In this document: positions 2-64,000 of the stretch, piece by piece
How the letters are laid out: every line of letters starts with the position of its first letter
Position numbering within the stretch: position 1 is the first letter of the stretch
Origin: an uncultured PS1 clade bacterium
Lineage (GTDB): Bacteria > Pseudomonadota > Alphaproteobacteria > MED-G09
Length of the DNA stretch: 64,000 bases
Assembly (NCBI GenBank): GCA_902537725.1
Contig: CACBCD010000001.1
Span: 79,158 to 143,157, forward strand
Direction of reading: 5' to 3'
Program-made: the position numbers and the translations under genes
Notes under the pieces: generated by a model
The model's database searches: none
Told to the model about the DNA's origin: nothing
What the model saw: the letters and a program-made list of their open reading frames with translations, nothing else

Positions 2-244
2 AGAATTTTTAATCCTATTAGTCAGGGTATTAAGTTTGATCCCGAGGGGGAATATACCAAGAAATTTTTACCTGAACTAAAGGATTTACCAATTAAATAT
101 CTTTACAGCCCATGGGAGGCGCCAGAAGATGTTTTAGAGCAAGCTAATGTAAAGCTTGGTGAAAATTACCCTAACCCAATTGTTGATTTAAAAGAGTCTC
201 GGGAGAAAGCATTAAATGCTTTCGATCAAATTAGAATTAAATAA
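2..244 (+). CDS. Deoxyribodipyrimidine photolyase/cryptochrome family, C-terminal fragment (5' end outside window)
   Basis: Own translation of frame 2 gives RIFNPISQGIKFDPEGEYTKKFLPELKDLPIKYLYSPWEAPEDVLEQANVKLGENYPNPIVDLKESREKALNAFDQIRIK*. This is the typical C-terminal FAD-binding-domain signature of photolyases. Stop TAA at 242-244. Not in the ORF track because it is truncated. Confidence 0.75.
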   Translation, partial: RIFNPISQGIKFDPEGEYTKKFLPELKDLPIKYLYSPWEAPEDVLEQANVKLGENYPNPIVDLKESREKALNAFDQIRIK

Positions 245-2012
245 TATACATATCAGCAATGGTACCATTCTGCGACCCTGATGAATTTAAAATATCACTA
301 ATACCGAATACCATAGAAAATTCAGTATAAGTTAGATCTATTCCAGCAGTACCATCAACCTTATTTCCTCCGAGATTATAAGAAAACTTATTAGCACCAC
401 TTATGGTTATTTCTCGTCCATCTTCAAGTGTTAGACGTGCAGCATTTTTTGTAAAAAGTGATTTATCGATATAAGTATTGCTTGGAATTTGAATAATATT
501 TGTACCTTCTGTATCGGTAATGGAGACTTTTCCATTTTTAGGTAAAAGCTGAGAAACGAAATAAGTATCGTCACCTTTTAATCCACGATATGTTTTTGCT
601 TGCCCATCAAGAATAATAATATTATCACCGGAATTAAAATTTAAGGTTCCTGATAATGTTGTTTCACTGTGAGCTTGCAGAATATTTTTTGTTAAGTCAG
701 GTGTCTCTGATAAAGAGTATTTACTGACTAAAACATCTCCGTCTTTAAAAGATATTTTCTCTACATCTTTTAAAGTATCAGTAAAATCTCCATTGCCAAC
801 AGTTACGACTCCCTCTGTGTATGAATATGAGTCTTTGGTACTACCTGAATAGGATATAGTATCAAAATTATCTGTTCCTTGAATTGTTCTGCCATTGGGT
901 ATTAAAAATACTCTTGTCTCATCGAGTTTAGGGTATGACAATAGTGTAATTTCATCGGTAAAATCTGGTTGATAGGTGGCATCATTAAATTCTATTGCAG
1001 AATAACCTACTAAAGCAAAGTCCCCGCTAGCACCGACATCCCCACCTAAGTCATTAGTTAAGCTTATTATTTTAAGGAAATTTGACTGATCTTGCTTTTG
1101 TAAAATATCATCATAATAATTTTCTATTCTATAATCATCTCTGTTTCCATTAATTTTAAAAATTTCATTATTTGTTTTGGCAACAGAGACGAGTTGACCC
1201 ATAACACTATCGCCTTGACGATTTAAAGGATCCAATTGAAAGATAGGAGGTGTTTCACCATTTTTTCCCCAAATTAATTCTAAAGCTTCCCAATCAAATT
1301 CAGCAAAATGAACAAGTAGACTTCCGTCCTCAAGTTGATGATTAATTCCCATATTACTTATGGTTGTTTCGCCTGCGCCCGAAATTTGAGTAACCGCATA
1401 ATCTCCATCAGTTAGTGTCGATGGGTGTTCTAGACCCAAGAGATGTCCAAATTCATGGGCAAAGGTTCTTTCCCAGTTACCTCTTGATGAATCATCCATT
1501 TCAACTGGAGTAGCAGGTCCTGGCACACTGTAATCTTGCATTGAACCAGCATAGGCATTCATTCTGAATTGAACATCAAGTTCATAAAAATTCTTTGTTA
1601 ATTGACTAAAAGCTTCTCTATTATCAGAACCTATTGGCCCACTAATACTTCCTCCTTTGCCATAGGAATCTTCAATAATCATATGAAAGTCTGCCTCATC
1701 AATGGATTGAACTTCTGAAATTTTTACACCTAAGCGGTCATTTAATGCATTAACAACTCTTGTTATAGCCTCAACTTGCCAATCAAAAGGAGAAATGGCT
1801 GTTACCCCTTTAAATACCTCTCCTTCTTTTGCTAGGTAATATTTTAATTCTCCAGGCTCTCTTGTTGTAGTCCTATTCCAAAGAGCAAGATCGCCAAATA
1901 AAATATGAGGATATTCAAGCACAACCTGACCAAGTTCATTTGTTGCTTCTGGGGCTGGTAAAAGCTGGTTATGATAAAAATCTCTTCCAGTCGTTTTACA
2001 AATTAAACACAT
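237..2012 (-). CDS. Secreted zinc metalloprotease (metzincin/serralysin-like) with C-terminal shared surface module
   Basis: 591 aa. HExxHxxGxxH zinc motif FAHEFGHLLGLEHPS. No N-terminal signal peptide. The C-terminal ~159 aa are near-identical to the C-terminus of the neighbouring gene. Confidence 0.8.
   Translation of the reverse strand: MCLICKTTGRDFYHNQLLPAPEATNELGQVVLEYPHILFGDLALWNRTTTREPGELKYYLAKEGEVFKGVTAISPFDWQVEAITRVVNALNDRLGVKISEVQSIDEADFHMIIEDSYGKGGSISGPIGSDNREAFSQLTKNFYELDVQFRMNAYAGSMQDYSVPGPATPVEMDDSSRGNWERTFAHEFGHLLGLEHPSTLTDGDYAVTQISGAGETTISNMGINHQLEDGSLLVHFAEFDWEALELIWGKNGETPPIFQLDPLNRQGDSVMGQLVSVAKTNNEIFKINGNRDDYRIENYYDDILQKQDQSNFLKIISLTNDLGGDVGASGDFALVGYSAIEFNDATYQPDFTDEITLLSYPKLDETRVFLIPNGRTIQGTDNFDTISYSGSTKDSYSYTEGVVTVGNGDFTDTLKDVEKISFKDGDVLVSKYSLSETPDLTKNILQAHSETTLSGTLNFNSGDNIIILDGQAKTYRGLKGDDTYFVSQLLPKNGKVSITDTEGTNIIQIPSNTYIDKSLFTKNAARLTLEDGREITISGANKFSYNLGGNKVDGTAGIDLTYTEFSMVFGISDILNSSGSQNGTIADMYII
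240..716 (-). repeat. Copy 1 of duplicated ~480-nt segment encoding the shared C-terminal module
   Basis: Nucleotide and protein similarity to 2040-2516, same orientation (GDNIIILDGQ.KTYRGL.G.DTYFVSQLLPK.GKVSITDTEG...ARLTLEDGREITISGA.KFSYN.GGN...DMYII). Confidence 0.85.
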
Positions 2013-2036: not shown

Positions 2037-4919
2037 TTATATTATATACATATCCGAAATTTCACCATTTTGTGCACCAGATGAGTTAAGAATATCATAG
2101 ACACCAAATACCTCTGCAAATTCGGTAAAGGTTAAATCTGTTCCTTTAGCGCCTTTGGTTATATTACCACCAACATTATATGAAAACTTGTCTGCTCCGC
2201 TAATAGTAATCTCACGTCCATCCTCAAGTGTTAAACGTGCTGCGTTTTTGGTAAATAAAGATTTATCGACATAAGTATTGGATGGAAGCTGAATAGTATT
2301 CGATCCTTCCGTGTCGGTAATGGAAACTTTTCCACTTTTTGGTAAAAGTTGTGAAACAAAATAAGTATCATTACCCTCCAAGCCTCGATAAGTTTTTCCT
2401 TGGCCATCAAGAATGATAATATTATCACCTTTATTAAAATTTAGAGTTCCAGGGAGAACATCTTCGGTATGTGCTGAAAGTATGTTTTCCGAAGTATCAA
2501 CCGTTTCTGAGAGTTGATATTTTAATGAAGTTTTCGATAGTATTTTATCCGAAAACTGCATCTTTTCGATGTCAGTAAGAGTGTCGGATCCTTCTTCGGT
2601 AAAACCTTCAGAAGGAGAGGAGTGAACTACACTAATCGTGCCATTATCATTAGAAGTTAACGTATAGGTTGATGATGCATCTTTATAAATAGCTATATCA
2701 ACACCAGCCCCACCATCAATAATATCGTTACCAGCTCCACCTTCAAAAGTATCCTTACCAGCATAACCAAAAGCTGTTTCATCGCCCTCACGTAAAACAA
2801 TAATATCATCGCCTGAATATCCATGGACTTTTGTGAATGGTGCAAAGGTTTTTAGTCCTGCCTCCTCTCCTTCAGCTAGATAATGCTCAAGACCTGTTGC
2901 ATAAGTTCCGGCATCAACTGCCTCTTTGGCAAAGGAATTCTCATTTAAATAATATTGCTCATTAAAACCTGGGGCACCCTTTTCAGCAGTATCTTTTGAA
3001 TAATTAGGGCCAGTACCGATTTTTTTAGTTAGTTCATAAATATGGAATGATATTTCAGATTCCGTACCGACACCATTTTCTGATTTTGACCATTTGGAAT
3101 TAAATGTTACAAACTCAATCAAGCCATCTTGATCAAAGTCAAAATATGCATAGGGTTTTCCATTGGTTTCATTTCTAGCAATATCAATAACTTCAAAACT
3201 ACCAGTTCCATCATTTAAATAAATTGTTGGGGTATCATTTAATGCTCTTGTACCAGCAATATCCATATGATTGTCATTATTTAAATCAATTAATTGCCAG
3301 GGTTCAGACCACTGAAGTCTCGACAAATATGCATCAATGTAAGCGTCTTCTGCTATTTTTTCAGTATTATCCTTAAAATTTCCTGATCCATCATTAATCA
3401 AGATCTGTATATAATGACCTCCATAGTAAGGTTCGTATCTAGACCATTGAATAGCTAAATCAATATCACCATCATTATCAAAATCTGATGGCATTGTTTT
3501 CATATGAAGTTGATTATCGGAACCATATATTGAATTGGGTAGATCTATAAAAGATTCTTTACTAAAATTACCATTATTATTTAAATATATTTTACTTGAA
3601 CCTTCGCCATGTCCAAATCCAGCAATCAAGTCATCAAAGCCGTCATTATCAATATCAATTAGTCCTGAGTCTAAGAGTAAATTGAACTTATTTGCATCAG
3701 AAGTTGGTACAGTACGAAGATAAGTATAAAACTCATTTTTCACTATTTCAAAATTTCCATCACTTTGTTGTATCAAAGCATATGGAGAAGACGACATTTC
3801 TCCAACGAAGATATCATCTAAACCATCTCCATTTATGTCGCCTACAGCCATCGAGTGAGCATCAACAGCATAAGGCTGATCGTTTGTTCCAATTGGAAGT
3901 TTTGGAATAATATCTGTTTGTTTTATTTCCGAGCTTATAGTTGTTATAATTGCAAGTTCTGAATATGGAACTTTTCTATCTGGATCACTTCTTTTTGACT
4001 CTTCTTCAGTATCATGATTGGCCGAAACAATCGATAGTGTTTCCGAGTTAACCAATTTAATTGTATCAGCTCTCCTACTCGAAGTAATATTTGGCATACT
4101 TGCATTTATTTCTTCATTATAAACTAATTTCCCTGACTCTGTTGTTAAGGCTATAAATGGCGTACTACCATCAATGCCTGAAGCATAACCTTTTGATAAA
4201 GGTAAAATAACATCTTTAATTCCATCTTCATTGAGGTCAAGAAGAGATCCTCCTTGGGCAAACCAGCTTACTAATTTTGCTTCAGTGGTTACACCTGCAT
4301 AAGTATATTCAGGCGCAATTGTACTATCGTAGAATTTATATGCCGTATATAATAAATCAGCCTTTATTGGGCTCGAAAAGTATTTTGATTCAATAATTTT
4401 AGAGTCATCCATAAATTCTATGGTTGCTACATTTTTAATAATATCTAATGTATCTTTTCCTTTTACATGAAATGAGTCGTCAATGTATGTTATTTCATAG
4501 TCGGTTGAGGGACCTCTTCCAGGAGCATATGATACTCTGTCTGAACCACCACCTCCATCAATTGTATTATTTCCACCATTTGCAAAAAATTTTTCATAAT
4601 TAGCTGTCCCGTAAAATGTATCACCAAACCTACTTCCATGAATTGTGGTTACATCAGAAATAGTATCTCTTGTTCCAAAACCATCCTCAGACCAGCCTTC
4701 TTCTAAATTTATTGTAACTGCTTGCTCAGCATCCCATAAAGCGTAATCAAAATTTGAACCTGAAATTGTATCTTCGCCTGGACTGCTTACGACCGTTTGA
4801 CCTGACCTTACTTTTGTAATGACATCATTACCCTTTCCTGGATAAATTCTGTCAATATCGGTATTTAACTGTGACGCATCAATTATATCGTCCTCATCTG
4901 TACCGTTGTAATTCACCAT
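2037..4919 (-). CDS. Large secreted FG-GAP/VCBS-repeat (beta-propeller) protein with RTX-like Ca-binding repeats and C-terminal shared module
   Basis: 960 aa. Repeated Ca-binding FG-GAP-type loops: DINGDGLDDIFVGE, DIDNDGFDDLIAGFG, DFDNDGDIDLAIQW, DLNNDNHMDIAGT, DFDQDGLIEFVTF. GGxGxD nonapeptide-like GGAGNDIIDGGAGVDIAIY. No signal peptide. Confidence 0.75.
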   Translation of the reverse strand: MVNYNGTDEDDIIDASQLNTDIDRIYPGKGNDVITKVRSGQTVVSSPGEDTISGSNFDYALWDAEQAVTINLEEGWSEDGFGTRDTISDVTTIHGSRFGDTFYGTANYEKFFANGGNNTIDGGGGSDRVSYAPGRGPSTDYEITYIDDSFHVKGKDTLDIIKNVATIEFMDDSKIIESKYFSSPIKADLLYTAYKFYDSTIAPEYTYAGVTTEAKLVSWFAQGGSLLDLNEDGIKDVILPLSKGYASGIDGSTPFIALTTESGKLVYNEEINASMPNITSSRRADTIKLVNSETLSIVSANHDTEEESKRSDPDRKVPYSELAIITTISSEIKQTDIIPKLPIGTNDQPYAVDAHSMAVGDINGDGLDDIFVGEMSSSPYALIQQSDGNFEIVKNEFYTYLRTVPTSDANKFNLLLDSGLIDIDNDGFDDLIAGFGHGEGSSKIYLNNNGNFSKESFIDLPNSIYGSDNQLHMKTMPSDFDNDGDIDLAIQWSRYEPYYGGHYIQILINDGSGNFKDNTEKIAEDAYIDAYLSRLQWSEPWQLIDLNNDNHMDIAGTRALNDTPTIYLNDGTGSFEVIDIARNETNGKPYAYFDFDQDGLIEFVTFNSKWSKSENGVGTESEISFHIYELTKKIGTGPNYSKDTAEKGAPGFNEQYYLNENSFAKEAVDAGTYATGLEHYLAEGEEAGLKTFAPFTKVHGYSGDDIIVLREGDETAFGYAGKDTFEGGAGNDIIDGGAGVDIAIYKDASSTYTLTSNDNGTISVVHSSPSEGFTEEGSDTLTDIEKMQFSDKILSKTSLKYQLSETVDTSENILSAHTEDVLPGTLNFNKGDNIIILDGQGKTYRGLEGNDTYFVSQLLPKSGKVSITDTEGSNTIQLPSNTYVDKSLFTKNAARLTLEDGREITISGADKFSYNVGGNITKGAKGTDLTFTEFAEVFGVYDILNSSGAQNGEISDMYII
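2040..2516 (-). repeat. Copy 2 of duplicated ~480-nt segment encoding the shared C-terminal module
   Basis: See 240-716. By manual count about 34 mismatches in ~159 aligned residues. Confidence 0.85.
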
Positions 4920-6498: not shown

Positions 6499-7399
6499 CT
6501 CTTTCTTTAGCTAAAAGTATTTGCTTCTGGCGTGAGCCGAAACGCTCTTTTTTTTCTTTTGTTGTTTTATCATAACAATAAATACAACTTATGCCTTCTA
6601 TATATTTTTCATTCTGCATTTCTTCTTCGGTAATTGGCATCCTACAAGCAAAACACATCTTATAAGATCCAACCTCTAATTCATCTGTAAGACAAACCCT
6701 TTGGTCAAAAACAAAACATTCGCCATTCCAAAGGCTATTTTCTCTGTCAATTGTTTCTAAATATTTAAGAATACCTCCTTGAAGGTGATAAACATCCTCA
6801 AAACCTTCTTCTTTCATTAAAGAAGAAGCTTTTTCGCATCGAATTCCTCCAGTACAAAACATGGCAATTTTCTTATTGGCATTTTCTTTAGAGCTTTTAA
6901 ATTTCTTTACCCAATCAGGAAATTCTCTAAAAGACGATGTCTCAGGATCTAGAGCATTTTGAAAAGATCCAATCTTTGTTTCATACTTATTACGAGCATC
7001 GATAACAACTACATTTGGGTCTGATATTAAATCATTCCAATCGTCTGGCTTTACATATGTTCCGACTTTTTTATTAGGATTAATTTCAGGAAGACCAATA
7101 GTTACAATTTCTTTTTTCAGCCTGACTTTCATTCTGTGAAAAGGTTGTTTATCAGTTGAGGAATATTTAATTTCTATATTAGTAAATCTTTTATCACTTT
7201 TAAAAAGTGAAATGGTTTGATTTATTTCATTAGTTTTTCCAGATATTGTGCCATTTATTCCCTCATTAGCAATAAGGATGGTTCCCATTATATTATTTTT
7301 TTTACAAATTTCATAAAGATTGCTTTGCAAAGAAAGAAGATCATCTATTTCCACAAATTTATATAACGCTGCTACTAATATTTCGTTTTTATCTGTCAT
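6464..7399 (-). CDS. trhO: Rhodanese-domain tRNA uridine(34) hydroxylase (TrhO/YceA, UPF0176)
   Basis: 311 aa. Rhodanese active-site loop MFCTGGIRCEKAS. C-terminal Cys-rich region CFACRMP...CIYC. Confidence 0.8.
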   Translation of the reverse strand: MTDKNEILVAALYKFVEIDDLLSLQSNLYEICKKNNIMGTILIANEGINGTISGKTNEINQTISLFKSDKRFTNIEIKYSSTDKQPFHRMKVRLKKEIVTIGLPEINPNKKVGTYVKPDDWNDLISDPNVVVIDARNKYETKIGSFQNALDPETSSFREFPDWVKKFKSSKENANKKIAMFCTGGIRCEKASSLMKEEGFEDVYHLQGGILKYLETIDRENSLWNGECFVFDQRVCLTDELEVGSYKMCFACRMPITEEEMQNEKYIEGISCIYCYDKTTKEKKERFGSRQKQILLAKERGEKHLGGKQTK

Positions 7400-7540
7400 T
7401 TAAGTCTTTTAAAACATTTTTTGTTATTTTCTTAGGAAAAATCAATTTATTAATTTTATCTATTAGATTCAAATATTTAATTTTTTTATTGTCTTAAAGT
7501 AGTTTTTTAGTATATGAAAGAAAGTAATGGAGTAAACAAT

Positions 7541-7837
7541 ATGCCTACAGGTACAGTTAAATGGTTTAATGGTCGTAAAGGTTATGGCTTTATTGAACCG
7601 GATGATGGTGAAAACGATGTTTTTGTTCACATTACTGCCGTTAAGGACTCAGGTTTAAATGTTCTGAACGAAGGAGATAAAGTGAGCTTTGAACTCGTTG
7701 AAAACAGAGGAAGAATGGCGGCTGAAAAACTAGCTAAAGCAGATAGTGATGAAGCGCCTGCAGAAGAGGCAGAAGCCGAAGCAGAAGAAGCAGAAGCTGA
7801 GGCTGAAGAAGCAGAATCGTCAGAAGAATCTGAGTAA
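7541..7837 (+). CDS. Cold-shock domain protein with repetitive acidic C-terminal tail
   Basis: [30 protein letters not shown] cold-shock domain with RNP1/RNP2-like motifs. GGAG Shine-Dalgarno at 7529-7532 favours ATG 7541 over the track start 7514. Tail [25 protein letters not shown]. Confidence 0.85.
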
Positions 7838-28941: not shown

Positions 28942-31434
28942 ATGTTTTTTAATTCAATGCATAAATCTATATCTCTAATAGTATTAGTAATATTGTTAAA
29001 TGGATGTGGAGGCGGAGGAGGAGGCTCTTCAAGTCAATTAACACCAATACCAGCTCAAGAAAATAATTCATCTGAAACACTTGACCCAAATACGAATATA
29101 TTTATTCCAAAGGAAACTTTTGAAACACCTGAATATAGAAATCAATGGGGTTTAGATTTTATAAATGCCTCAGATGCATATTCTTACGGTGCCTCAGGCA
29201 AGGGTGTAGTGGTCGGTGTGGTTGACGAAGCTCTAGATTGGGGTCATCATGAGTTTCTTAAAGAAAATATTCTTCATCCTGACAGTATTTTAATGTATAG
29301 CGGAAATAGAGAACCTACTCCTTTAGAGAAATTTCATGGTACCGCTACAAGCTCAATAATCGCGGGTAGAAAAGATAATGAACCCGTCGATAGAAATATG
29401 CATGGTGTTGCTTATGATGCTCAAATTTTATTTATTGCAATTGAATTAGGCTCTCCACCCTCGGATGGTGAATATGAACCAATAGATATACCGGCTTTTA
29501 GCTGGGAGCGATTTGATGAACAGGAATCTAAGTTCTATGAAGAACTGTCTTCTAAATCAGATGTTATTAACAATAGCTTTGGATTTACTGGACAGATAAC
29601 TGATTATTCAAGAGAAACTCTTCAAAATACGTTTCCAAAATTAATAAATACTTTTGCAAGTCAACAGGAGACTATTTTTGTTTGGTCAGCTGGTAATTAT
29701 AATGGAATAACAGATACTGAAGGTGAGCAAGTAAATGCTGCAAATCCAGGAATTTTGGCTGGCTTAGGTTATTATTTTCCAGAACTAGCTAAGAATAATG
29801 TTGCAGTTGTTGCTGTTGATCAAGAAGGTGAAATTGCTGATTTTTCAAACCGATGTGGTGTTGCCGCTGATTTTTGTATCGCCGCACCCGGTGTAAAGGT
29901 GCCTCTTGCAATTCCTAATAATTTATTTAATTCACTTTCAGAGAATGAAAAAAGTAATTTTAATGATAATGTTTTAGACTATCTAGAAAATTATCCTACT
30001 GAAGCATACTTACTTGGATCGGGAACATCCTTTTCTGCACCTCACGTAACTGGATCAATAGCTGTGTTAAAAGAACTCTTTAGAGATAATTTATCCAGTG
30101 TTCAAATTTTAGAACGCTTATTTATAACTGCTAATAAAACTGGGAAATACGCTGATAAAGAAATTTATGGACAAGGTTTGCTAGACTTAAAAAAAGCGTC
30201 ATCGCCAGTTGGTTCAACTCTTTTCTATACTAGGTCAAGTATATATTCAAAGGCGTTACCATCTACAAGTTCAAATATATTTCTAACAAAATCTTTTGGT
30301 GATGGTCTAAAAAATAGCTTAGGAAAAACAAAATTATCCATATTTGATGCACTGGGCGCTCCCTTTTCTGTGCCAGTTAGTTCTTTTATAAGAAGTAATA
30401 TTTCATCCTCAAAAACTATGGAGAGATTATTTAATTTTAAAGAAAAGAAATATGGTTATTTTTCCTCTCAAGGTTTTGAATTTTATTCATCATGGAAGAG
30501 ATTTCTAAACTCAACCGGCGCAGAGGTGAATAAAATTGATTTTGCAGAGATAAATTTTCGAAGAAAAGATACCCTGTTATCACTAGCTTTTGGAAAAAAT
30601 CCTTCATCAAATTTTCTAGATACATCTGAAGAATTACTAATTTACCAGAGTTTTTATGATAAAGAAGCTTTTCTAACTCCATGGTTAAATCTAGTCGAAG
30701 AGGGTTATAGTCTTGGTTTTTCAAATAGGTTAAATGAATTATATTTTGATTTAAATATTTTTTCTGGTTTTAAGAGAAGTGAAGATTGGTTTTTAAAACC
30801 AAGTTATTATTTTCAAAAAACTAAAAATGAAAGTAAAGGTCTCAATTTAACGCTCAGGAATAATATTTTATCAAAGTTTATGATTGGTTACACTCTTGGA
30901 TTTTTAGAAACAAATAATGGTCTATTTGATAATCGTTTTAATGGCGCTTTTAGTATAATTGAAGATACAAAGAGTATTTTTTCATCGATTTCTTTTAAGT
31001 CATCATTAGCAAAAGAATTAAGTTTTATAGGAAGTATAAACTATTCAAACTCCTCTAATATAAACTCAGATAAAATCATTAAAAATATTTCAGGCTTAGA
31101 GGAATTTAGTTTTGATTTTGCTTTAATTAAAAAATCGCTTTTTTATAAAAATGATTTTCTATCATTTCGTATCAAACAAGATCCTAGAATTGAGAAAGCA
31201 AGAGTATCTTTAAACATACCAAAAGGAAGAAATCCTAATGGAGTTGTTGAATTTAAATCAGTAACTTTACCTATAATCCCATCTGGAAGAGAAATAAACT
31301 TTGAAACATCATGGTCGTTTCATAGGGATAACAGAAAATCATTTATTAATTTGAGTTTTATAGATGATAAAGACCATATTAAGTCAAAAGATATTGAAAT
31401 AAATTTAATATTTGCACATCAGCGATTTTTTTAA
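28942..31434 (+). CDS. Subtilisin-family (S8) serine peptidase lipoprotein with C-terminal outer-membrane beta-barrel (autotransporter-like, NalP/SphB1 style)
   Basis: 830 aa. Lipobox LLNGC followed by a Gly-run. Catalytic D (VVGVVDEALD), H (HGTATSSIIAG), S (GTSFSAPHVTGSIA). C-terminal ~380 aa has alternating-hydrophobic strands and ends in IFAHQRFF (terminal aromatic). Confidence 0.75.
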   Translation: MFFNSMHKSISLIVLVILLNGCGGGGGGSSSQLTPIPAQENNSSETLDPNTNIFIPKETFETPEYRNQWGLDFINASDAYSYGASGKGVVVGVVDEALDWGHHEFLKENILHPDSILMYSGNREPTPLEKFHGTATSSIIAGRKDNEPVDRNMHGVAYDAQILFIAIELGSPPSDGEYEPIDIPAFSWERFDEQESKFYEELSSKSDVINNSFGFTGQITDYSRETLQNTFPKLINTFASQQETIFVWSAGNYNGITDTEGEQVNAANPGILAGLGYYFPELAKNNVAVVAVDQEGEIADFSNRCGVAADFCIAAPGVKVPLAIPNNLFNSLSENEKSNFNDNVLDYLENYPTEAYLLGSGTSFSAPHVTGSIAVLKELFRDNLSSVQILERLFITANKTGKYADKEIYGQGLLDLKKASSPVGSTLFYTRSSIYSKALPSTSSNIFLTKSFGDGLKNSLGKTKLSIFDALGAPFSVPVSSFIRSNISSSKTMERLFNFKEKKYGYFSSQGFEFYSSWKRFLNSTGAEVNKIDFAEINFRRKDTLLSLAFGKNPSSNFLDTSEELLIYQSFYDKEAFLTPWLNLVEEGYSLGFSNRLNELYFDLNIFSGFKRSEDWFLKPSYYFQKTKNESKGLNLTLRNNILSKFMIGYTLGFLETNNGLFDNRFNGAFSIIEDTKSIFSSISFKSSLAKELSFIGSINYSNSSNINSDKIIKNISGLEEFSFDFALIKKSLFYKNDFLSFRIKQDPRIEKARVSLNIPKGRNPNGVVEFKSVTLPIIPSGREINFETSWSFHRDNRKSFINLSFIDDKDHIKSKDIEINLIFAHQRFF

Positions 31435-42123: not shown

Positions 42124-44163
42124 TTAAAATTGTTGTTCTAAAGATAGATAAAACTCTCTCTCATTGCCAACAAAATATCTATAACTTCCAAAGGCATAAT
42201 CAGCTCTTGTAGCATAACGTTCATCTGATAAATTTCTTACAGTTAATCCTATTGATGTATTGCTTGTAAGATCCCCTTTTAATCTTAAATTAAAAATATC
42301 ATGTCCCTCGTAAGTATGAGCATTACTTTCATTAATTGGATAGTCTCCAACTCTAATCCATTCTAATTCAAATTTTCCACCGCTTGAGGTAAGATAGGCA
42401 AATCTAGTATTCGCAAGTTCTTTAGGTGCTGAGTCAATTGTATTGCCTTTTACAATTTTGTTTGGACTGTGATTGAAGTCATATTCATGGTCAGCAAAAC
42501 TTAATGAGCCAGAAATTTCAAAATTATCTCCAAAGGCTTTATAATAATTAAATTCTATTCCGTTATGTTTTGTAACTCCATTTTCCACATTAAAACCTTG
42601 GGAGTCTCTAAAGAAATAGTTTTCTTTTTGCATTGCGTAACCAACTATTTCATATTCTAATCCAATATTAGATACACCTCTAAAGCCTATTTCAAAACTT
42701 TCTAATTCTTCAGAATCAGCTCCCCCAGGAACTTGTTTACTTTGAATTCGATACAGGTCGGTAACTTGTGGCGCTCTATTGCCAATTGATAAGTTTGCAA
42801 ATAAAAAATTATTTTCTCTAAGCATATAAGAAAGTGAAGTTTTTACTGAAATATCAGTAAAATCGTCACTCCTATTTGGGCTAACTTGAATTCTTCCTTT
42901 TGTGCCACTTGGGATATTTGTTTTGTAATCATATTCTACATTTTCTGCTCTAACACCAGCGGTAAAAATAGTTTTTTCATTAAGGAACCACTCAGTATTA
43001 AAATATAAAGATAGTATTCTACTATCGATTGAAAAATCATAATGTGGCCCTTGTGGATAGGCCAATCTTGGACCAAAGGATACATCTTTAGACTCTTGAA
43101 ACTCTGACAATTTACCCTCTGTAAATTCTATATCGCTTCCAATAAACCATGTTAAATTTTGTACTTTTTTAGTATAAAGGCTTTGAACTCCAATACTCTT
43201 ATGAGAGTTAGTCTCTAGAGGTTTTCCAGGTAAAAAGTGCATTTTAAAATCCATTTCATTATAGCGAATATATGGATTAATTGTTAATTTTGAGTTTGAG
43301 TAGTTTTTGATAATTTTAAGCGACGATCTTATGCTGTATGTATCCCTAAATGCTTCAGGATCAGGATTAATTTTGCTTAAATTTTTATCGTTATATATTT
43401 TATATCCTTTTACATATCCCTTTGTTTCTTGATTAAGATTTGTACCCATTATTGTAAAGATATAGTCATTTATTCCTTTAGAGTTATCCCAACGGAATAG
43501 AAATTTTTGTTGGCCATAATGCGGTTGATCATTTGATTTTTCGTGACTGTATCCGTTATCTTCTCTCCATAGGAAATTTAAAACAACACCACCATTTTCT
43601 GTAGGTCCAGAAAAGCCAGTATCGATAATAAATTCCTGATCTGAAAATTGTGTTTTCAGAGATCCTTGTCTTTCCTTACTTGGGGTAGGGGTTATTACAT
43701 TAACTAAGCCATGTACAGCATTGGAGCCATACAAAGTAGAGCCTGGTCCTCTAACAACTTCAGCTCTATCTCCAATTTCAATAATTGACTCCATTAATCC
43801 ATTTACATTTCCAAAACCTGGGGATCTAAGGGGGATACCATCCTCTAAATATAAAAAACTTCCAGCACCTGCTCCTCCAGATAATACTGGTGATCTAATA
43901 GAGGTAAGATGTTCTTGACCACTTCCCTGACTTATATATACAGCAGGGAGTCTGTTTAAAATTTCGCTAGGATTAATTGCGCTTATAAATTTTATTTCAT
44001 CAGTGCTAATTGAGGAAATATTACCTCCAACTTTTAAAATTTGTTCATTTTCTTTTGACGATGTTACAATAATTTCATCAACTAACTTTGCATTAGCAAA
44101 GAAATTAAATTGTATTAATGGTACGAAAAATAAAATTAAGAAAAATTTAATTGTCTTAGTCAT
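42124..44163 (-). CDS. TonB-dependent outer-membrane receptor
   Basis: 679 aa. Signal peptide, plug-domain motifs (VVRGPGSTLYGSNAVHGLVNVIT), C-terminal YLSLEQQF. Confidence 0.85.
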   Translation of the reverse strand: MTKTIKFFLILFFVPLIQFNFFANAKLVDEIIVTSSKENEQILKVGGNISSISTDEIKFISAINPSEILNRLPAVYISQGSGQEHLTSIRSPVLSGGAGAGSFLYLEDGIPLRSPGFGNVNGLMESIIEIGDRAEVVRGPGSTLYGSNAVHGLVNVITPTPSKERQGSLKTQFSDQEFIIDTGFSGPTENGGVVLNFLWREDNGYSHEKSNDQPHYGQQKFLFRWDNSKGINDYIFTIMGTNLNQETKGYVKGYKIYNDKNLSKINPDPEAFRDTYSIRSSLKIIKNYSNSKLTINPYIRYNEMDFKMHFLPGKPLETNSHKSIGVQSLYTKKVQNLTWFIGSDIEFTEGKLSEFQESKDVSFGPRLAYPQGPHYDFSIDSRILSLYFNTEWFLNEKTIFTAGVRAENVEYDYKTNIPSGTKGRIQVSPNRSDDFTDISVKTSLSYMLRENNFLFANLSIGNRAPQVTDLYRIQSKQVPGGADSEELESFEIGFRGVSNIGLEYEIVGYAMQKENYFFRDSQGFNVENGVTKHNGIEFNYYKAFGDNFEISGSLSFADHEYDFNHSPNKIVKGNTIDSAPKELANTRFAYLTSSGGKFELEWIRVGDYPINESNAHTYEGHDIFNLRLKGDLTSNTSIGLTVRNLSDERYATRADYAFGSYRYFVGNEREFYLSLEQQF

Positions 44164-60068: not shown

Positions 60069-60142
60069 GACAGTAGTAATTTAGACTAAGAAATTGTCAC
60101 ATTCTGCTTTTTTAAAAAAGCATTAATATGGGAGTATTTATA

Positions 60143-62008
60143 ATGAGCGGACAAAATTTACTATCACCCAAAAATGTAAAAGATGAAAATCTTACTTTAG
60201 AAGATAAAAATCTAATCAAAATTTCTCGTAGTAAATTAGGATACTTCAGTGCAATTACACTTCCAATGATCCTTGCCGCTTGTGGAGGTGGAGGAGGTGG
60301 AAATTATGATGAACCTGTCAGTCCTACTCCAGACTCAGATTCCAGTGGTGCAGTACAAGGTGGTTCAGTAACTGCTGGAATTAGTGCTAATGCTGGTCGT
60401 TATACTGCAACTGCTGATGCAGACACTTATTTATATGATGTTACTTTTGCAGCAAGTGGGTCGGTTACTTCTGCTCAAGATGGTAATGTTATAATATCTG
60501 ATTTTGATGCAAGCAATGATGTGCTTGTTCTTAGAGGAACTGGTGCTCCCTCATCATTTACTTCTGGTGGATCATCAAATGTTGATGTCGCATCTGATAT
60601 TAATGGTGATACCATTGTTACTCTTGGCAGTGATAATGATGCAACCGGTACTATTACTTTAAAAGGTGTTTCTGATTCATCAACTGTTGTTATCAATACC
60701 GCTGATGAAGCTGCTGATGCCGGTTCGCCAGTTATAGATTTATCAAGCGGAAGCGTTGCAAGTTCATCTGCGGGTGAAATTTTTGAATTTTCTGTAAAGT
60801 TTTTAAATGGCGTTCCTGTTGCAATTGATGGAAATACTTCTATTACAAATTTTGACGCTGTAATTGATAGAATTGTAATTAAAACAGAAACTTTACCAGC
60901 CGGATATTCAAAAGAAGATCTTTTGTCAACATTAGGTGTTGATGTAACTACCGGGATTAATTCAACAAGAATTGATTTTGGAGTTAACGCAGATGGTAAT
61001 AGTGGTTCTATTGATATTGAGGGAGTTGCTGATGCAGACTTATCTTCAATAGATCTTACTTTTTCAATTTCATCTCCAGCAATTTCTGGTAGTCGTGTAG
61101 ACATTGACACTTCAAGTGTAACCGCGAGTGCAGATGCTGAAACTTTTGTCTACGATGCAACGTCAAGTGGATCAGATGTAGTGGGTGCTGATGGTAATGT
61201 TACAATTTCTGGTTTTGATTTATCTACAGATAAAATAATTATTCTTGGTTCTGGTATAGCCAATGGTTATGACTTAAGTAGATTTGAAGCAAATGCGTCG
61301 CATGATTATTCTATTGATGAGATTAATAACAAAACAGTTATTTATTTCGCTCCTGACGCAGATGGTAGTAGTTCAACTTTAACCCTGGATGGCGTTGTTG
61401 ATAAAGATAAAACTCTAAATATAGTTTTTGGTTCATCAATTGGAGATGAAGCTGCTCCAGCTCCAGCAGCTGAAGAAACTCCTGCTGAAGAAACAACAAC
61501 CACTACAACCGAGGAAACTACAACCGAAGAAACTACAACCGAGGAAACTACAACCGAGGAAACTACAACCGAGGAAACTACTACAGAAGAAACCACAACT
61601 GAAGAAACTCCAGCTGCATCATATACTGTTGTTAATATTTCAGCCTCAGAAGATACAACAGTTACCGCAACTTCTGCAGCAGAAGAATTTAGGTATGAAG
61701 TTTCTAGTTCAGGTGTATCAGAAGAAGGTGCATATACTGTAACTATCGATGGATTTGATGCTGCAACTGATAAATTAACACTTGTTATCGTTAATGGAAC
61801 ATCAAATTTAACGACTCAAGAGTTTGATCAGTTAACTAATGTTGAAGTAACCTCAGATGGTATTTCAGGAACACAAATATTATTTGCACCTGATAGTAAT
61901 GCACAAAGTGGTAAGCTAGTTTTACCAAATATTGAAGAGTCATTTGATACTGATTGGACTGCAACTACATATACAGTAGAAATTATCACTGACACGAATT
62001 TAACATAA
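60143..62008 (+). CDS. Surface lipoprotein with four ~110-130-aa internal repeats and an (EETTT)n linker
   Basis: Lipobox MILAAC followed by a Gly-run. Repeat cores DGNVIISDFDASNDVLVLRG, DGNTSITNFDAVIDRIVIK, DGNVTISGFDLSTDKIIILG, YTVTIDGFDAATDKLTLV. GGGAG SD favours ATG 60143 over 60128. Confidence 0.75.
   Translation: MSGQNLLSPKNVKDENLTLEDKNLIKISRSKLGYFSAITLPMILAACGGGGGGNYDEPVSPTPDSDSSGAVQGGSVTAGISANAGRYTATADADTYLYDVTFAASGSVTSAQDGNVIISDFDASNDVLVLRGTGAPSSFTSGGSSNVDVASDINGDTIVTLGSDNDATGTITLKGVSDSSTVVINTADEAADAGSPVIDLSSGSVASSSAGEIFEFSVKFLNGVPVAIDGNTSITNFDAVIDRIVIKTETLPAGYSKEDLLSTLGVDVTTGINSTRIDFGVNADGNSGSIDIEGVADADLSSIDLTFSISSPAISGSRVDIDTSSVTASADAETFVYDATSSGSDVVGADGNVTISGFDLSTDKIIILGSGIANGYDLSRFEANASHDYSIDEINNKTVIYFAPDADGSSSTLTLDGVVDKDKTLNIVFGSSIGDEAAPAPAAEETPAEETTTTTTEETTTEETTTEETTTEETTTEETTTEETTTEETPAASYTVVNISASEDTTVTATSAAEEFRYEVSSSGVSEEGAYTVTIDGFDAATDKLTLVIVNGTSNLTTQEFDQLTNVEVTSDGISGTQILFAPDSNAQSGKLVLPNIEESFDTDWTATTYTVEIITDTNLT
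61472..61615 (+). repeat. In-frame 15-nt tandem repeat array (gaRgaaactacaacc) encoding EETPA-(EETTT)n-EETPA
   Basis: Four units that are identical apart from a single A/G difference in unit 2 at 61511-61570, flanked by degenerate units. Confidence 0.9.
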
Positions 62009-62120: not shown

Positions 62121-62238
62121 ATAAATTATTTTATATTGACGTTTTTGACGAAATGTAGGATTTTGTGATTCGTTAGCAGTTTTTTGCTATCGAAATTTTT
62201 GAATACAACGACTTGTTGTTATTTTAGGGAGAAAATAA

Positions 62239-64000
62239 ATGGCGACTATTAATCACAGTTCTGGTGCGGACATCATCGTACCTTCAGCTAATGGAACCAC
62301 GTACAGAGGTCTAGGTGGAGATGATACATATATATTATCAAATTCAATCGAAGCTAATGCAGCAATTACAATTGTTGATACAAGTGGTGCGAATAAAATT
62401 CAGTTAGTAAACGGTTTATCTGTTTCTTCAACTAAATTTGCAGCAGATGCTGTGCAATTAACATTAAGCAACGGTGCTGTTGTAACGATTAATGGTGCAA
62501 GTAATTTTACTTTTGATTTAGGTGGTAATGCAACTGCAGGAACAACTGGTTCAGTAAGCTCATTTGCAGCCTTTGCTGCTGGAGCTGGTGTTGCTTCACT
62601 TCCAACTTCTGGATCTGTAGCTGGTGCTTCTGATGTAACAGTTCAAGGCACGGCGTGGTCAAGTGGTGGTGGCGCTTCTTACTCTGTAACAAAATCTGCT
62701 ACTAGTGTAACAGAAGGTGATGCCGCCGTATTTACAATTACATCTAGTGTCGCTGTGACTACTGACACTTCTTTCTCCTGGACTGTAATTGGTGATGATA
62801 ATGGTGGTACTGTTGATAAAGCTGGAACAACTGATGTTGATCTTTTATCTGGTACAGCAACAATAGCCGCTGGCTCAACTTCAACAACCTTCTCTGTAAC
62901 CCCAACAACTGACTCAACCGTTGAGGGTATTGAAGGTATGAAAATTAGTGTTTTTGACTCTAATTCAAATTCAATTTCTAGCGATATAATTCTTATTAAT
63001 AATGATGGTTCATCAGCTACTACAGCTGCATTTACCCTTACAACCGGTGTTGATACATTTACAGGCAGAAGTGGTAATGACTCATTTGATGGAACTACAG
63101 CTGACAGTCTAAATGATTATGACGTTCTTGATGGTGGTGCTGGTGTTGACACATTAACTGTAAAAAGTGCGTCAGCAGCAGGTGGATTAACATTAATTCC
63201 TCAATTATCAAATATGGAAATTATCCAAGCTACTAATAGCATCACAGATGATACTATTGCTGATGATGATACATTAACCATCGCTCTTGCTGGTATTTCT
63301 GGTATTACCGCATTAGCTAATATAGCTGGTGGTGATGGTGTTACTTTTAATGACTTAGCAAACCCAGTTGATTTAACAGTTAAATCAGCTCCCAATAAAA
63401 CTACAGTCAATTATGCTGAGACAGCTCTAACAGGTGCTGCAGACTCAATGACGTTGACACTCTCTGGAACAAACTCAACTACTGTAGCTATTACAGATGA
63501 CAGTACTGCAACAACAAGTGCTCTTGAGAGTTTAACTATCAATAGTATTTCTGTTGCAAATACTCTTGCGGATCTTCAAATTGATGGTGTTTTAACTCCA
63601 ACATTAACTGTAACCGGTGGTTCAGCTTTAACAATTACTGCTGCCCTAGATTCTAATGTTGAAACAGTTGACGCATCTGCAAATACTGGTGGTCTAACAT
63701 TATCTACTGCTCCTGGTGCTACCAATGTTACAATTACAGGTAGTGCTGCTGCGGATACATTAACTGCTGTGGCTACTGGTATTAATACACTTTCAATGGG
63801 TGGTGGTAATGATACCGCTGACTTTGATGGAACATGGGCTGGTACTGATACATATGATGGTGGTGACGGTACAGATACTTTACGATTAGACGGTAACTAC
63901 ACAAACGCTGGTCTTTCATCAACCGTTTTTGGTGGCCTTAGTAATGTTGAAGTTGTTGCGATCGATACTGCGCATTCATTAACGCTTGAATCAAATATTT
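62239..64000 (+). CDS. Giant repetitive RsaA-like surface (S-layer/RTX-type) protein, N-terminal part (3' end outside window)
   Basis: AGGGAG SD 7 nt before ATG 62239. My translation shows no stop through 64000. MATINHSSGADIIV..., no signal peptide. N-terminal shared module. Calx-beta-like segment (YSVTKSATSVTEGDAAVFTITSS...STVEGIEGMKISVFD). Then Thr/Ala/Gly-rich TLTTGVDTFTGRSGNDSFDG / LDGGAGVDTLTV / GGGNDTADF repeats. Absent from the ORF track because it has no stop. Confidence 0.8.
   Translation, partial: MATINHSSGADIIVPSANGTTYRGLGGDDTYILSNSIEANAAITIVDTSGANKIQLVNGLSVSSTKFAADAVQLTLSNGAVVTINGASNFTFDLGGNATAGTTGSVSSFAAFAAGAGVASLPTSGSVAGASDVTVQGTAWSSGGGASYSVTKSATSVTEGDAAVFTITSSVAVTTDTSFSWTVIGDDNGGTVDKAGTTDVDLLSGTATIAAGSTSTTFSVTPTTDSTVEGIEGMKISVFDSNSNSISSDIILINNDGSSATTAAFTLTTGVDTFTGRSGNDSFDGTTADSLNDYDVLDGGAGVDTLTVKSASAAGGLTLIPQLSNMEIIQATNSITDDTIADDDTLTIALAGISGITALANIAGGDGVTFNDLANPVDLTVKSAPNKTTVNYAETALTGAADSMTLTLSGTNSTTVAITDDSTATTSALESLTINSISVANTLADLQIDGVLTPTLTVTGGSALTITAALDSNVETVDASANTGGLTLSTAPGATNVTITGSAAADTLTAVATGINTLSMGGGNDTADFDGTWAGTDTYDGGDGTDTLRLDGNYTNAGLSSTVFGGLSNVEVVAIDTAHSLTLESNI

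Follow-up and report, generated by a model that had tools for sequence, protein, structure and literature searches.

A previously unannotated terminal module shared by a large RTX protein and leaderless enzymes of marine PS1-clade bacteria, and its candidate role in surface docking

The stretch of DNA analysed here (the window) comprises 64,000 nucleotides from an uncultured PS1 clade bacterium (GenBank assembly GCA_902537725.1, contig CACBCD010000001.1, positions 79,158 to 143,157 of the forward strand), and a scan of species-representative genomes places its locus among the uncultured PS1-clade, 'Rhodobiaceae' and OCS116 marine alphaproteobacteria. The window encodes three copies of a module, one at the N-terminus of a large protein with repeats-in-toxin (RTX) motifs, and one each at the C-termini of a metzincin-type protease and of an FG-GAP propeller protein. 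We find that this module is a sizeable, previously unannotated domain family of about 135 residues. The arrangement is reminiscent of Caulobacter, where the C-terminal half of the protease Sap resembles the N-terminus of RsaA, the surface-layer (S-layer) protein (PMC3034196), a precedent that a preliminary description of this DNA had correctly cited. The locus repeats this RsaA/Sap logic with an unrelated domain, and is an unannotated family in a known architectural style, not a categorically new system. As to function, the reading that we favour, and hold tentatively, is that the module is a Ca2+-dependent surface-docking domain for cargo of a type I secretion system (T1SS), which would hold exported proteins on the cell surface and, in its C-terminal form, would double as the secretion signal.

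The open reading frame (ORF) of the large protein begins on the forward strand with an ATG at 62239, preceded by an in-frame TAA (62236-62238) and by a Shine-Dalgarno sequence, AGGGAG (62226-62231), 7 nt upstream, and remains open for 587 codons up to the end of the window (62239..64000); its translation, start context and orthologues identify it as the 5' part of a gene for a large leaderless RTX surface protein. When the first 150 residues of this protein were compared by BLASTP with the other two, 50 of 128 aligned residues were identical in the metzincin (39%, one gap, E 2e-27) and 47 of 119 in the FG-GAP protein (39%, no gaps, E 3e-27). A hidden Markov model (HMM) built from 25 family members detected exactly three module copies in the 64 kb of the window, at E-values of 2.3e-57 for the N-terminal copy and of 1e-60 and 1e-62 for the other two. 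The copies, as defined by BLASTP and the HMM (and by an AlphaFold2 model for the first), cover residues 1-136 of the large protein, counted from Met1 (62239..62646, forward strand), residues 456-591 of the metzincin, with the end ...ADMYII-COOH (240..647, reverse strand), and residues 825-960 of the FG-GAP protein, with the end ...SDMYII-COOH (2040..2447, reverse strand). The homology of the three copies, proposed in the preliminary description, is thereby borne out; the matching region, which had been put at about residues 20-100 of the large protein, is real but extends over residues 3-130. Between the two C-terminal copies, identity is 82% at the protein level and only 76% at the DNA level, and 48 of the 111 codons for identical residues differ synonymously, which argues that their likeness is kept by selection on the protein and not by recent gene conversion. 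Gene conversion or concerted evolution of the copies is ruled out by these differing synonymous sites, together with an identity between N- and C-terminal copies that is the same within genomes as between them.

Beyond the window, the profile search for which the preliminary description had called recovered 857 protein clusters at E<=1e-3; at the stricter cut-off of E<=1e-10 the count was 688. The module maps to no existing family, since no model in Pfam-A 2025 or NCBIfam 20.0 matches it at E<=1, Peptidase_M10_C and HemolysinCabind included; 50 module proteins have no family in common apart from those of their partner domains, and a comparison of the module profile with PDB sequences returned only noise. 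AlphaFold2 confidently predicts a beta-roll-like fold, all-beta with one short helix (predicted local distance difference test score, pLDDT, 89.7; predicted template-modelling score, pTM, 0.84). Foldseek gave this model no match better than E 0.02, and the weak leaders were the C-terminal beta-rolls of T1SS lipases (2z8x, 2qua), the Mcf toxin, RTX block V of CyaA and serralysins (1o0q). The invariant residues of the module include two RTX-like turns, TYRGLxGxDxY and DTxGxNxIQ, which suggest that it binds Ca2+. RsaA was recovered neither by sequence nor by fold searches of the module. Because the module is modelled as all-beta whereas the N-terminal anchor of RsaA (residues 1-250) is alpha-helical (PMC6978808), the two are not homologous, and the proposed kinship of the module with the RsaA cell anchor has to be abandoned. 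The possibility that the N-terminal module is a copy of other C-terminal domains in the same genomes, namely those of the serralysins ('...DLMII') and of the large protein ('...DFLMV'), was rejected at hhalign probabilities below 1%, and a connection with phages found no backing in a Foldseek search against BFVD or in a scan of viral contigs.

The PS1/OCS116 group carries at least 102 module copies on 76 loci, counts that are lower bounds, being drawn from the best 80 matches. Single-cell genomes hold up to 8 copies each, and the module proteins of a genome, all of them leaderless, number at least 6-8 and include several metzincins. Placement within these proteins is strict, in that copies lie exactly at Met1 or at the extreme C-terminus. 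Copies of the N-terminal type (N-type) open at Met1 with 'MATLNFNSG…' and precede the large RTX protein, ~500-residue beta-lactamase-fold proteins, ~630-residue proteins with a second module copy, ~431-residue proteins with cupredoxin-like motifs, ~885-residue proteins with a serralysin C-terminal domain and proteins of ~290 residues. Copies of the C-terminal type (C-type) extend to the last residue, which always completes the sequence …D[LM]YI[IV], and are joined to metzincins, true serralysins, FG-GAP propellers, Calx-beta, trypsin, cyclophilin, RCC1 and BNR partners, the genes often standing in tandem arrays. In a third class, an 'MCxxC…' leader is followed by the module and then by a serralysin with its own C-terminus. 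Among serralysin homologues, the Peptidase_M10_C match ends about halfway through the domain (3 cases) or at about three-quarters (1 case), and the module lies downstream, at the protein's C-terminal end. The idea that one module is common to several types of cargo thus holds true across enzymes, propellers and the large RTX protein. Identity between the N and C subfamilies is 42%, as against 50-63% within a subfamily, and copies within one PS1 genome are ~45-55% identical. The ~431-residue N-type proteins (L054:9989-11281, as well as L055, L058, L062-L064 and L067, where L numbers designate related loci) contain 'YYC.FHG.M' twice, a motif reminiscent of type-1 copper (cupredoxin) sites, and have no Pfam match and no Sec or Tat signal.

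Outside PS1/OCS116, one representative is annotated as Rhodoferax, a separate locus comes from Accumulibacter, and most representatives are metagenome proteins; we take these non-PS1/OCS116 proteins to be largely betaproteobacterial. Most commonly they carry two copies in tandem near the C-terminus. Of the 143 best representatives, 49 have tandem internal pairs and 15 combine an internal with a C-terminal copy; a clear Sec signal peptide is present in at least 6-7. Such tandem copies and Sec-signal relatives argue that the module is an autonomous, repeatable extracellular domain that is independent of T1SS, and not merely a secretion tag. In Candidatus Accumulibacter aalborgensis (L028:9062-20272), proteins of 280 and 3,430 residues are encoded in tandem, each with the module at Met1, an arrangement that mirrors the PS1 layout in a betaproteobacterium.

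The gene upstream of the large gene bears on how the module is used. It encodes a lipoprotein-like protein (60128..62008, forward strand), recognised from its sequence and kept in the gene order of L001-L005, with a lipobox (ILAAC), a hydrophobic peak at residues 41-52 and four copies of a ~130-residue domain. Between the last of these domains and the C-terminal domain of the ~290-295-residue N-type proteins (L022:9974-10858), identity is 60% (E 3e-47), and the match continues up to the very C-terminus. The same passenger domain therefore stands behind a lipoprotein signal in one case and behind an N-terminal module in the other, so that the module occupies the place of a lipid anchor. In the lipoprotein-like protein, the repeated domain bears the motif F.Y...G..I.GFD...DKL.L, and a linker of the type (ETTT)n lies around residues 468-500.

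With respect to export, none of the three window proteins has a hydrophobic N-terminal segment: their maximum 12-residue Kyte-Doolittle value is below 1.0, compared with 1.97 for the neighbouring lipoprotein, in agreement with the earlier statement that all three lack a Sec signal. An acidic-plus-hydrophobic C-terminus ([DE] and then 2-4 hydrophobic or Gly residues) is found in 58 of 92 module proteins (63%) versus 9 of 443 neighbouring ORFs (2%), examples for the window being DMYII in the metzincin and the FG-GAP protein and DFLMV in the orthologues of the large protein. An acidic residue and, after it, hydrophobic residues make up the T1SS terminus of the protease and lipase type (PMC2642768). 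Gly/Asp-rich RTX repeats are present in the FG-GAP protein and in the full-length large protein, and absent from the metzincin; the module itself has only its two RTX-like turns.

As the window copy of the large protein stops at residue 587, its RTX repeats and C-terminal end were read in the full-length orthologues at L004 and L005 (10001-16189), whose modules are 98% identical and whose gene order is the same. These orthologues have 2,062 residues (203 kDa, isoelectric point 4.05, Cys-free; 16% Thr, 13% Gly, 12% Ala, 11% Asp), with 12 stretches matching HemolysinCabind, the Pfam RTX family (6e-66), around residues 1030-1680, and a C-terminus reading ...AADFLMV before the stop codon, so that both the RTX repeats and the T1SS-type end sought in the full-length ORF are found there. 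The protein is accordingly large and not 'giant', as it had been called; its OCS116 orthologue is of 1,617-1,735 residues. An AlphaFold model of residues 1-587, made from a 42-sequence alignment (mean pLDDT 85), falls into four parts, namely the module, a disordered linker (residues 124-144), a Calx-beta-type sandwich (residues 148-254; 62680..63000, forward strand) and a beta-helical body. Foldseek relates the sandwich to Calx-beta/CBD1 (TMt 0.57-0.69), and its homologues carry PF03160; the window fragment itself has no Pfam match, nor does any family in Pfam-A 2025 or NCBIfam 20.0 match the 587 residues at E<=1. The body, which is rich in Thr, Ala, Gly and Asp, starts at residue 264 and fills the remainder of the fragment to residue 587 (63028..64000, forward strand), with pLDDT mostly above 90.

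Among 350,000 PDB chains, the top fold match of the 587-residue model is RsaA (6p5t; Foldseek E 1.8e-4, probability 1.0, 479 columns, 18% identity, template-modelling (TM) score 0.27, root-mean-square deviation 15). A phmmer search of the PDB gave no match to the fragment and, for the 2,062-residue orthologue, only the RTX blocks of CyaA, serralysins and lipases, without RsaA; distant sequence relatives, in Synechococcus and Nitrosomonas, carry no annotation beyond 'Calx-beta domain-containing' or 'beta strand repeat-containing'. The designation of the protein as RsaA-like can therefore be kept in part: its body is partly RsaA-like by predicted fold, and not by sequence.

In the docking reading that we favour, module proteins would exit through a type I secretion system; their module would fold outside the cell with Ca2+ and tether its protein to the cell surface, via a surface polymer or via other module proteins. 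Because nothing comes after the module in C-type proteins, the C-terminal module would also have to bear the T1SS signal. A free-living oligotroph would thereby retain its exoenzymes and a large RTX coat protein, the 2,062-residue protein being the putative main structural member, which may form a coat or S-layer in view of the partly RsaA-like predicted fold of its body and the adjoining glycan and protein-modification genes. We prefer docking to a pure secretion role because of the tandem repeats, the Sec-signal relatives, the placement at either end and the exchange with a lipid anchor. Polymer-binding anchor modules such as SLH are typically repeated in tandem (PMC4232325), and secretion signals typically are not. 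A more specific form of this reading, which we regard as rather doubtful, would make the module the diderm, T1SS-linked equivalent of SLH or CWB2: from either protein end, and in dependence on Ca2+, it would bind a glycan of the surface, organise a coat of the 203-kDa RsaA-like RTX glycoprotein and a dozen tethered exoenzymes on PS1/OCS116 bacterioplankton, and serve at C-termini as the T1SS signal too.

Several observations weigh against docking. Its anchoring part we infer from architecture alone. Every Foldseek match of the module lies above E 1e-3, and the likeness of the large protein to RsaA comes with a low TM score and is not recovered by phmmer in the PDB. Genes for ATP-binding cassette (ABC) transporters, membrane fusion proteins or TolC, which the preliminary description had suggested looking for nearby, were found neither in the window nor within 10 kb of the 76 related loci, and a regular-expression search for ABC ATPases in the 3,325 ORFs of these loci returned none with both motifs. 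The terminal D-x-Y-I-I matches a structural beta-strand that is also present in N-terminal and Sec-type copies (SDVTV, NFVVS), and so is no proof of a T1SS signal. The N and C copies, moreover, belong to distinct subfamilies and show no within-genome homogenisation (0.44 versus 0.42), and therefore no sign of co-adaptation to a strain-specific ligand.

Three other readings were considered. The module might serve mainly in secretion and folding, as a lineage-specific stand-in for the cap and signal that follow the RTX repeats at the C-terminus of serralysin-type T1SS substrates. On this view, the C-terminal copy would be recognised by the transporter and would nucleate Ca2+-driven folding, and the N-terminal copies would be stoppers or retention plugs that emerge last, like those of LapA and MpIBP. 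Such a role would suit the ending of C-type copies always at the last residue with D[LM]YI[IV], the position of the module at the C-terminal end of serralysin homologues after a truncated Peptidase_M10_C match, the best, though weak, fold matches to T1SS C-terminal beta-rolls and CyaA block V, and the start of N-type copies exactly at Met1, as in retention modules. We nevertheless consider it unlikely: Sec signal peptides, and copies in tandem or at internal positions, are found in many family members, the N-type proteins have other, unrelated C-terminal domains (hhalign probability <1%), and at least 8 different N-terminally plugged proteins per genome would block the T1SS channel. Furthermore, the top 50 listed fold matches include no solved structure of a retention module (adhesin N-terminal domain), and no conserved di-alanine site of the LapG type follows the module, 'FAAG' occurring in the large protein only. 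Alternatively, the module could be a general extracellular ligand-binding or adhesion domain for polysaccharide, particles or other cells, directing enzymes to their substrates rather than to the bacterium's own surface. Its many catalytic and adhesin-type partners and its tandem pairs are like those of carbohydrate-binding modules (CBMs), it is found in unrelated lineages with different export routes, and it shows no within-genome co-evolution; set against this, the strict Met1 or last-residue placement in PS1/OCS116 is unusual for substrate-binding modules, a passenger domain has been exchanged between a lipid anchor and the module, and the PDB fold search reveals no likeness to known CBM folds, which leaves this role, to our minds, improbable.

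The third reading is that of the preliminary description, in which the large protein would form an S-layer and be edited by the metzincin, a dedicated Sap-like protease docked by the shared module. The architecture does parallel that of RsaA and Sap, and the large protein has a body of partly RsaA-like predicted fold, is RTX-bearing and is Cys-free. However, the metzincin does not match the NCBIfam SapA equivalog model (NF051884, cut-off 1200 bits), RTX motifs were not found in it, and it is located 57 kb from the large gene, amid housekeeping genes. It is a single member of a set of at least 6-8 module-bearing proteins in each genome, and several metzincins and many non-protease proteins bear the same module, which is not homologous to the RsaA anchor; nor does a T1SS adjoin the locus. 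With the metzincin 57 kb away and one among many module proteins, a Sap-like editing system is unsupported, and we think this pairing very unlikely indeed. In the docking reading, neither the metzincin nor the FG-GAP protein is a dedicated partner of the large protein, and both belong to the ordinary cargo of the module set.

Set beside the RsaA/Sap pair of Caulobacter crescentus, the PS1 locus has in common with it an acidic RTX surface protein that is Cys-free and exported by T1SS (putatively so in PS1), and that has an N-terminal region found again as a metalloprotease C-terminus (39% over 128 residues, E 2e-27; an architectural parallel only), adjoining glycan genes, and RsaA itself as the top fold match. 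It differs in that the module is all-beta where the RsaA anchor is alpha-helical, in the lack of sequence similarity, in the window-type protein being twice as long, in the absence of adjacent rsaD/rsaE-like genes, and in the presence of the module on many proteins and not on one protease. The closest functional analogue is found in the SLH-type modules of Gram-positive S-layer and S-layer-associated proteins, which are often repeated, occur N- or C-terminally in a structural surface protein as well as in many enzymes of the surface, and bind cell-wall glycan (PMC4232325). The PS1 module is likewise shared by a structural protein and enzymes, at either end, but has a different fold and envelope (diderm), a T1SS-looking export and single copies at absolute termini, and its binding is putative. 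The closest structural neighbours are the C-terminal beta-rolls of serralysins and family I.3 lipases (Peptidase_M10_C; the LARD of TliA), which are like the module in their C-terminal position, their acidic-plus-hydrophobic end and the weak fold matches (2z8x, 2qua, 1o0q). Unlike these domains, it has no Peptidase_M10_C or HemolysinCabind match and is also found N-terminally, internally, in tandem and in Sec-signal proteins. With the retention modules of the LapA and MpIBP RTX adhesins, the N-type copy shares the character of a folded N-terminal domain that starts with Met1, belongs to a very large leaderless RTX protein and would exit the T1SS last; in contrast to them, the module is also carried by many small enzymes and at C-termini, and no structural or sequence match between the two was detected. 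In Campylobacter fetus, the SapA/SapB system comprises several T1SS surface proteins per genome that have a common conserved N-terminal region from residue 1, matched to the type of lipopolysaccharide. The PS1 copies differ in being only ~45-55% identical within a genome, and are therefore not recombination cassettes, and most of their partners are enzymes.

If the module is indeed a docking module, it would provide a second, unrelated case of a surface-protein N-terminus that recurs as an enzyme C-terminus, and would explain how a free-living oligotroph stops its exoenzymes from diffusing off. The HMM would then predict the surface and exoenzyme proteome of PS1/OCS116 (proteases, beta-lactamase-fold hydrolases, propellers and cupredoxin-like proteins), the large protein would be a candidate S-layer or phage-receptor protein, and the module would lend itself as a natural tag for displaying proteins on the surface by T1SS. 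The PS1 and OCS116 clades, marine alphaproteobacteria that are widespread and have barely been cultured, have genomes of ~1.45 Mb, and a search of the literature on S-layers or T1SS in PS1, OCS116 or Parvibaculales found nothing relevant. That such genomes spend at least 6-8 genes, together with a 6-kb gene, on one unannotated domain implies an important surface function. Even on a conservative reading, a new domain family of 857 clusters merits a Pfam entry, and it gives a solid, testable starting point for studying the surface of a marine clade that is abundant and poorly known.

The metzincin-type protease of the window is a leaderless protein of 591 residues (237..2012, reverse strand), identified from its ORF, its zinc motif and sub-threshold Pfam matches. 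Its HExxHxxGxxH zinc site reads HEFGHLLGLEH at residues 186-196 (1425-1457), in support of the earlier assignment; the Pfam matches to Peptidase_M10 and Reprolysin remain below threshold (18.4 versus 24 bits for Peptidase_M10). The protein begins with the motif MC[LV][IM]C..TG[RT][DK].[FY]H (residues 1-14; 1971-2012, reverse strand), which recurs in other module proteins of metzincin or serralysin type (L013:9830-13531, L060:4291-5892 and the proteins P0131 and P0134), and in some proteins with this opening the module follows directly, at about residue 57. The motif could be a cysteine-switch or a Zn-binding latency element. The leaderless FG-GAP propeller and RTX protein has 960 residues (2037..4919, reverse strand), and its assignment as a propeller is upheld by Pfam matches to FG-GAP_3 (PF13517, 1.5e-22) and FG-GAP (1.2e-9), along with one to HemolysinCabind (1.2e-6) at residues 711-742 (2694-2789).

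The gene order gltB, POT transporter, 267-residue gene, ~626-residue gene and large gene is shared between the window and L004/L005. On the 3' side of the large gene, PS1 genomes encode a methyltransferase, two GT4 glycosyltransferases and RmlC (L005:16272-20409), and in OCS116 the orthologues of the large protein are flanked by fusions of tetratricopeptide repeats (TPR) with sulfotransferases (three) or with 2-oxoglutarate-Fe(II)-oxygenases (three to four) and by APS kinase, these flanking genes lying at L010:14883-20409 and 6670-7608, L011:15065-19894 and L012:6990-11863. By its gene content this is a glycan or protein-modification neighbourhood, and the TPR-enzyme architecture suggests that the large protein may itself be modified.

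Pfam scans of 30 other ORFs in the window, whose GC content is ~33%, assigned every one to housekeeping or transport. An 830-residue subtilase (S8; 28942-31434, forward strand) and a TonB-dependent receptor (42124-44163, reverse strand) are also encoded there, both without the module. Module genes close to the PS1/OCS116 copies occur in metagenome-assembled genomes labelled Chloroflexota, Marinoscillum, SAR202, Marinimicrobia, Flavobacteriales and OM43 (L006, L009, L035, L039, L040 and L062); two of these, L006 and L009, are contigs with the large protein, whose modules are 80-85% identical to the window module. The oddly labelled contigs are probably the result of binning contamination. The related long-read assemblies measure 1.45-1.47 Mb, and three such genomes in ENA (L001, L002 and L077) are linearised or end at module-bearing genes, which are frameshifted there and called as fragments of 150-250 residues.

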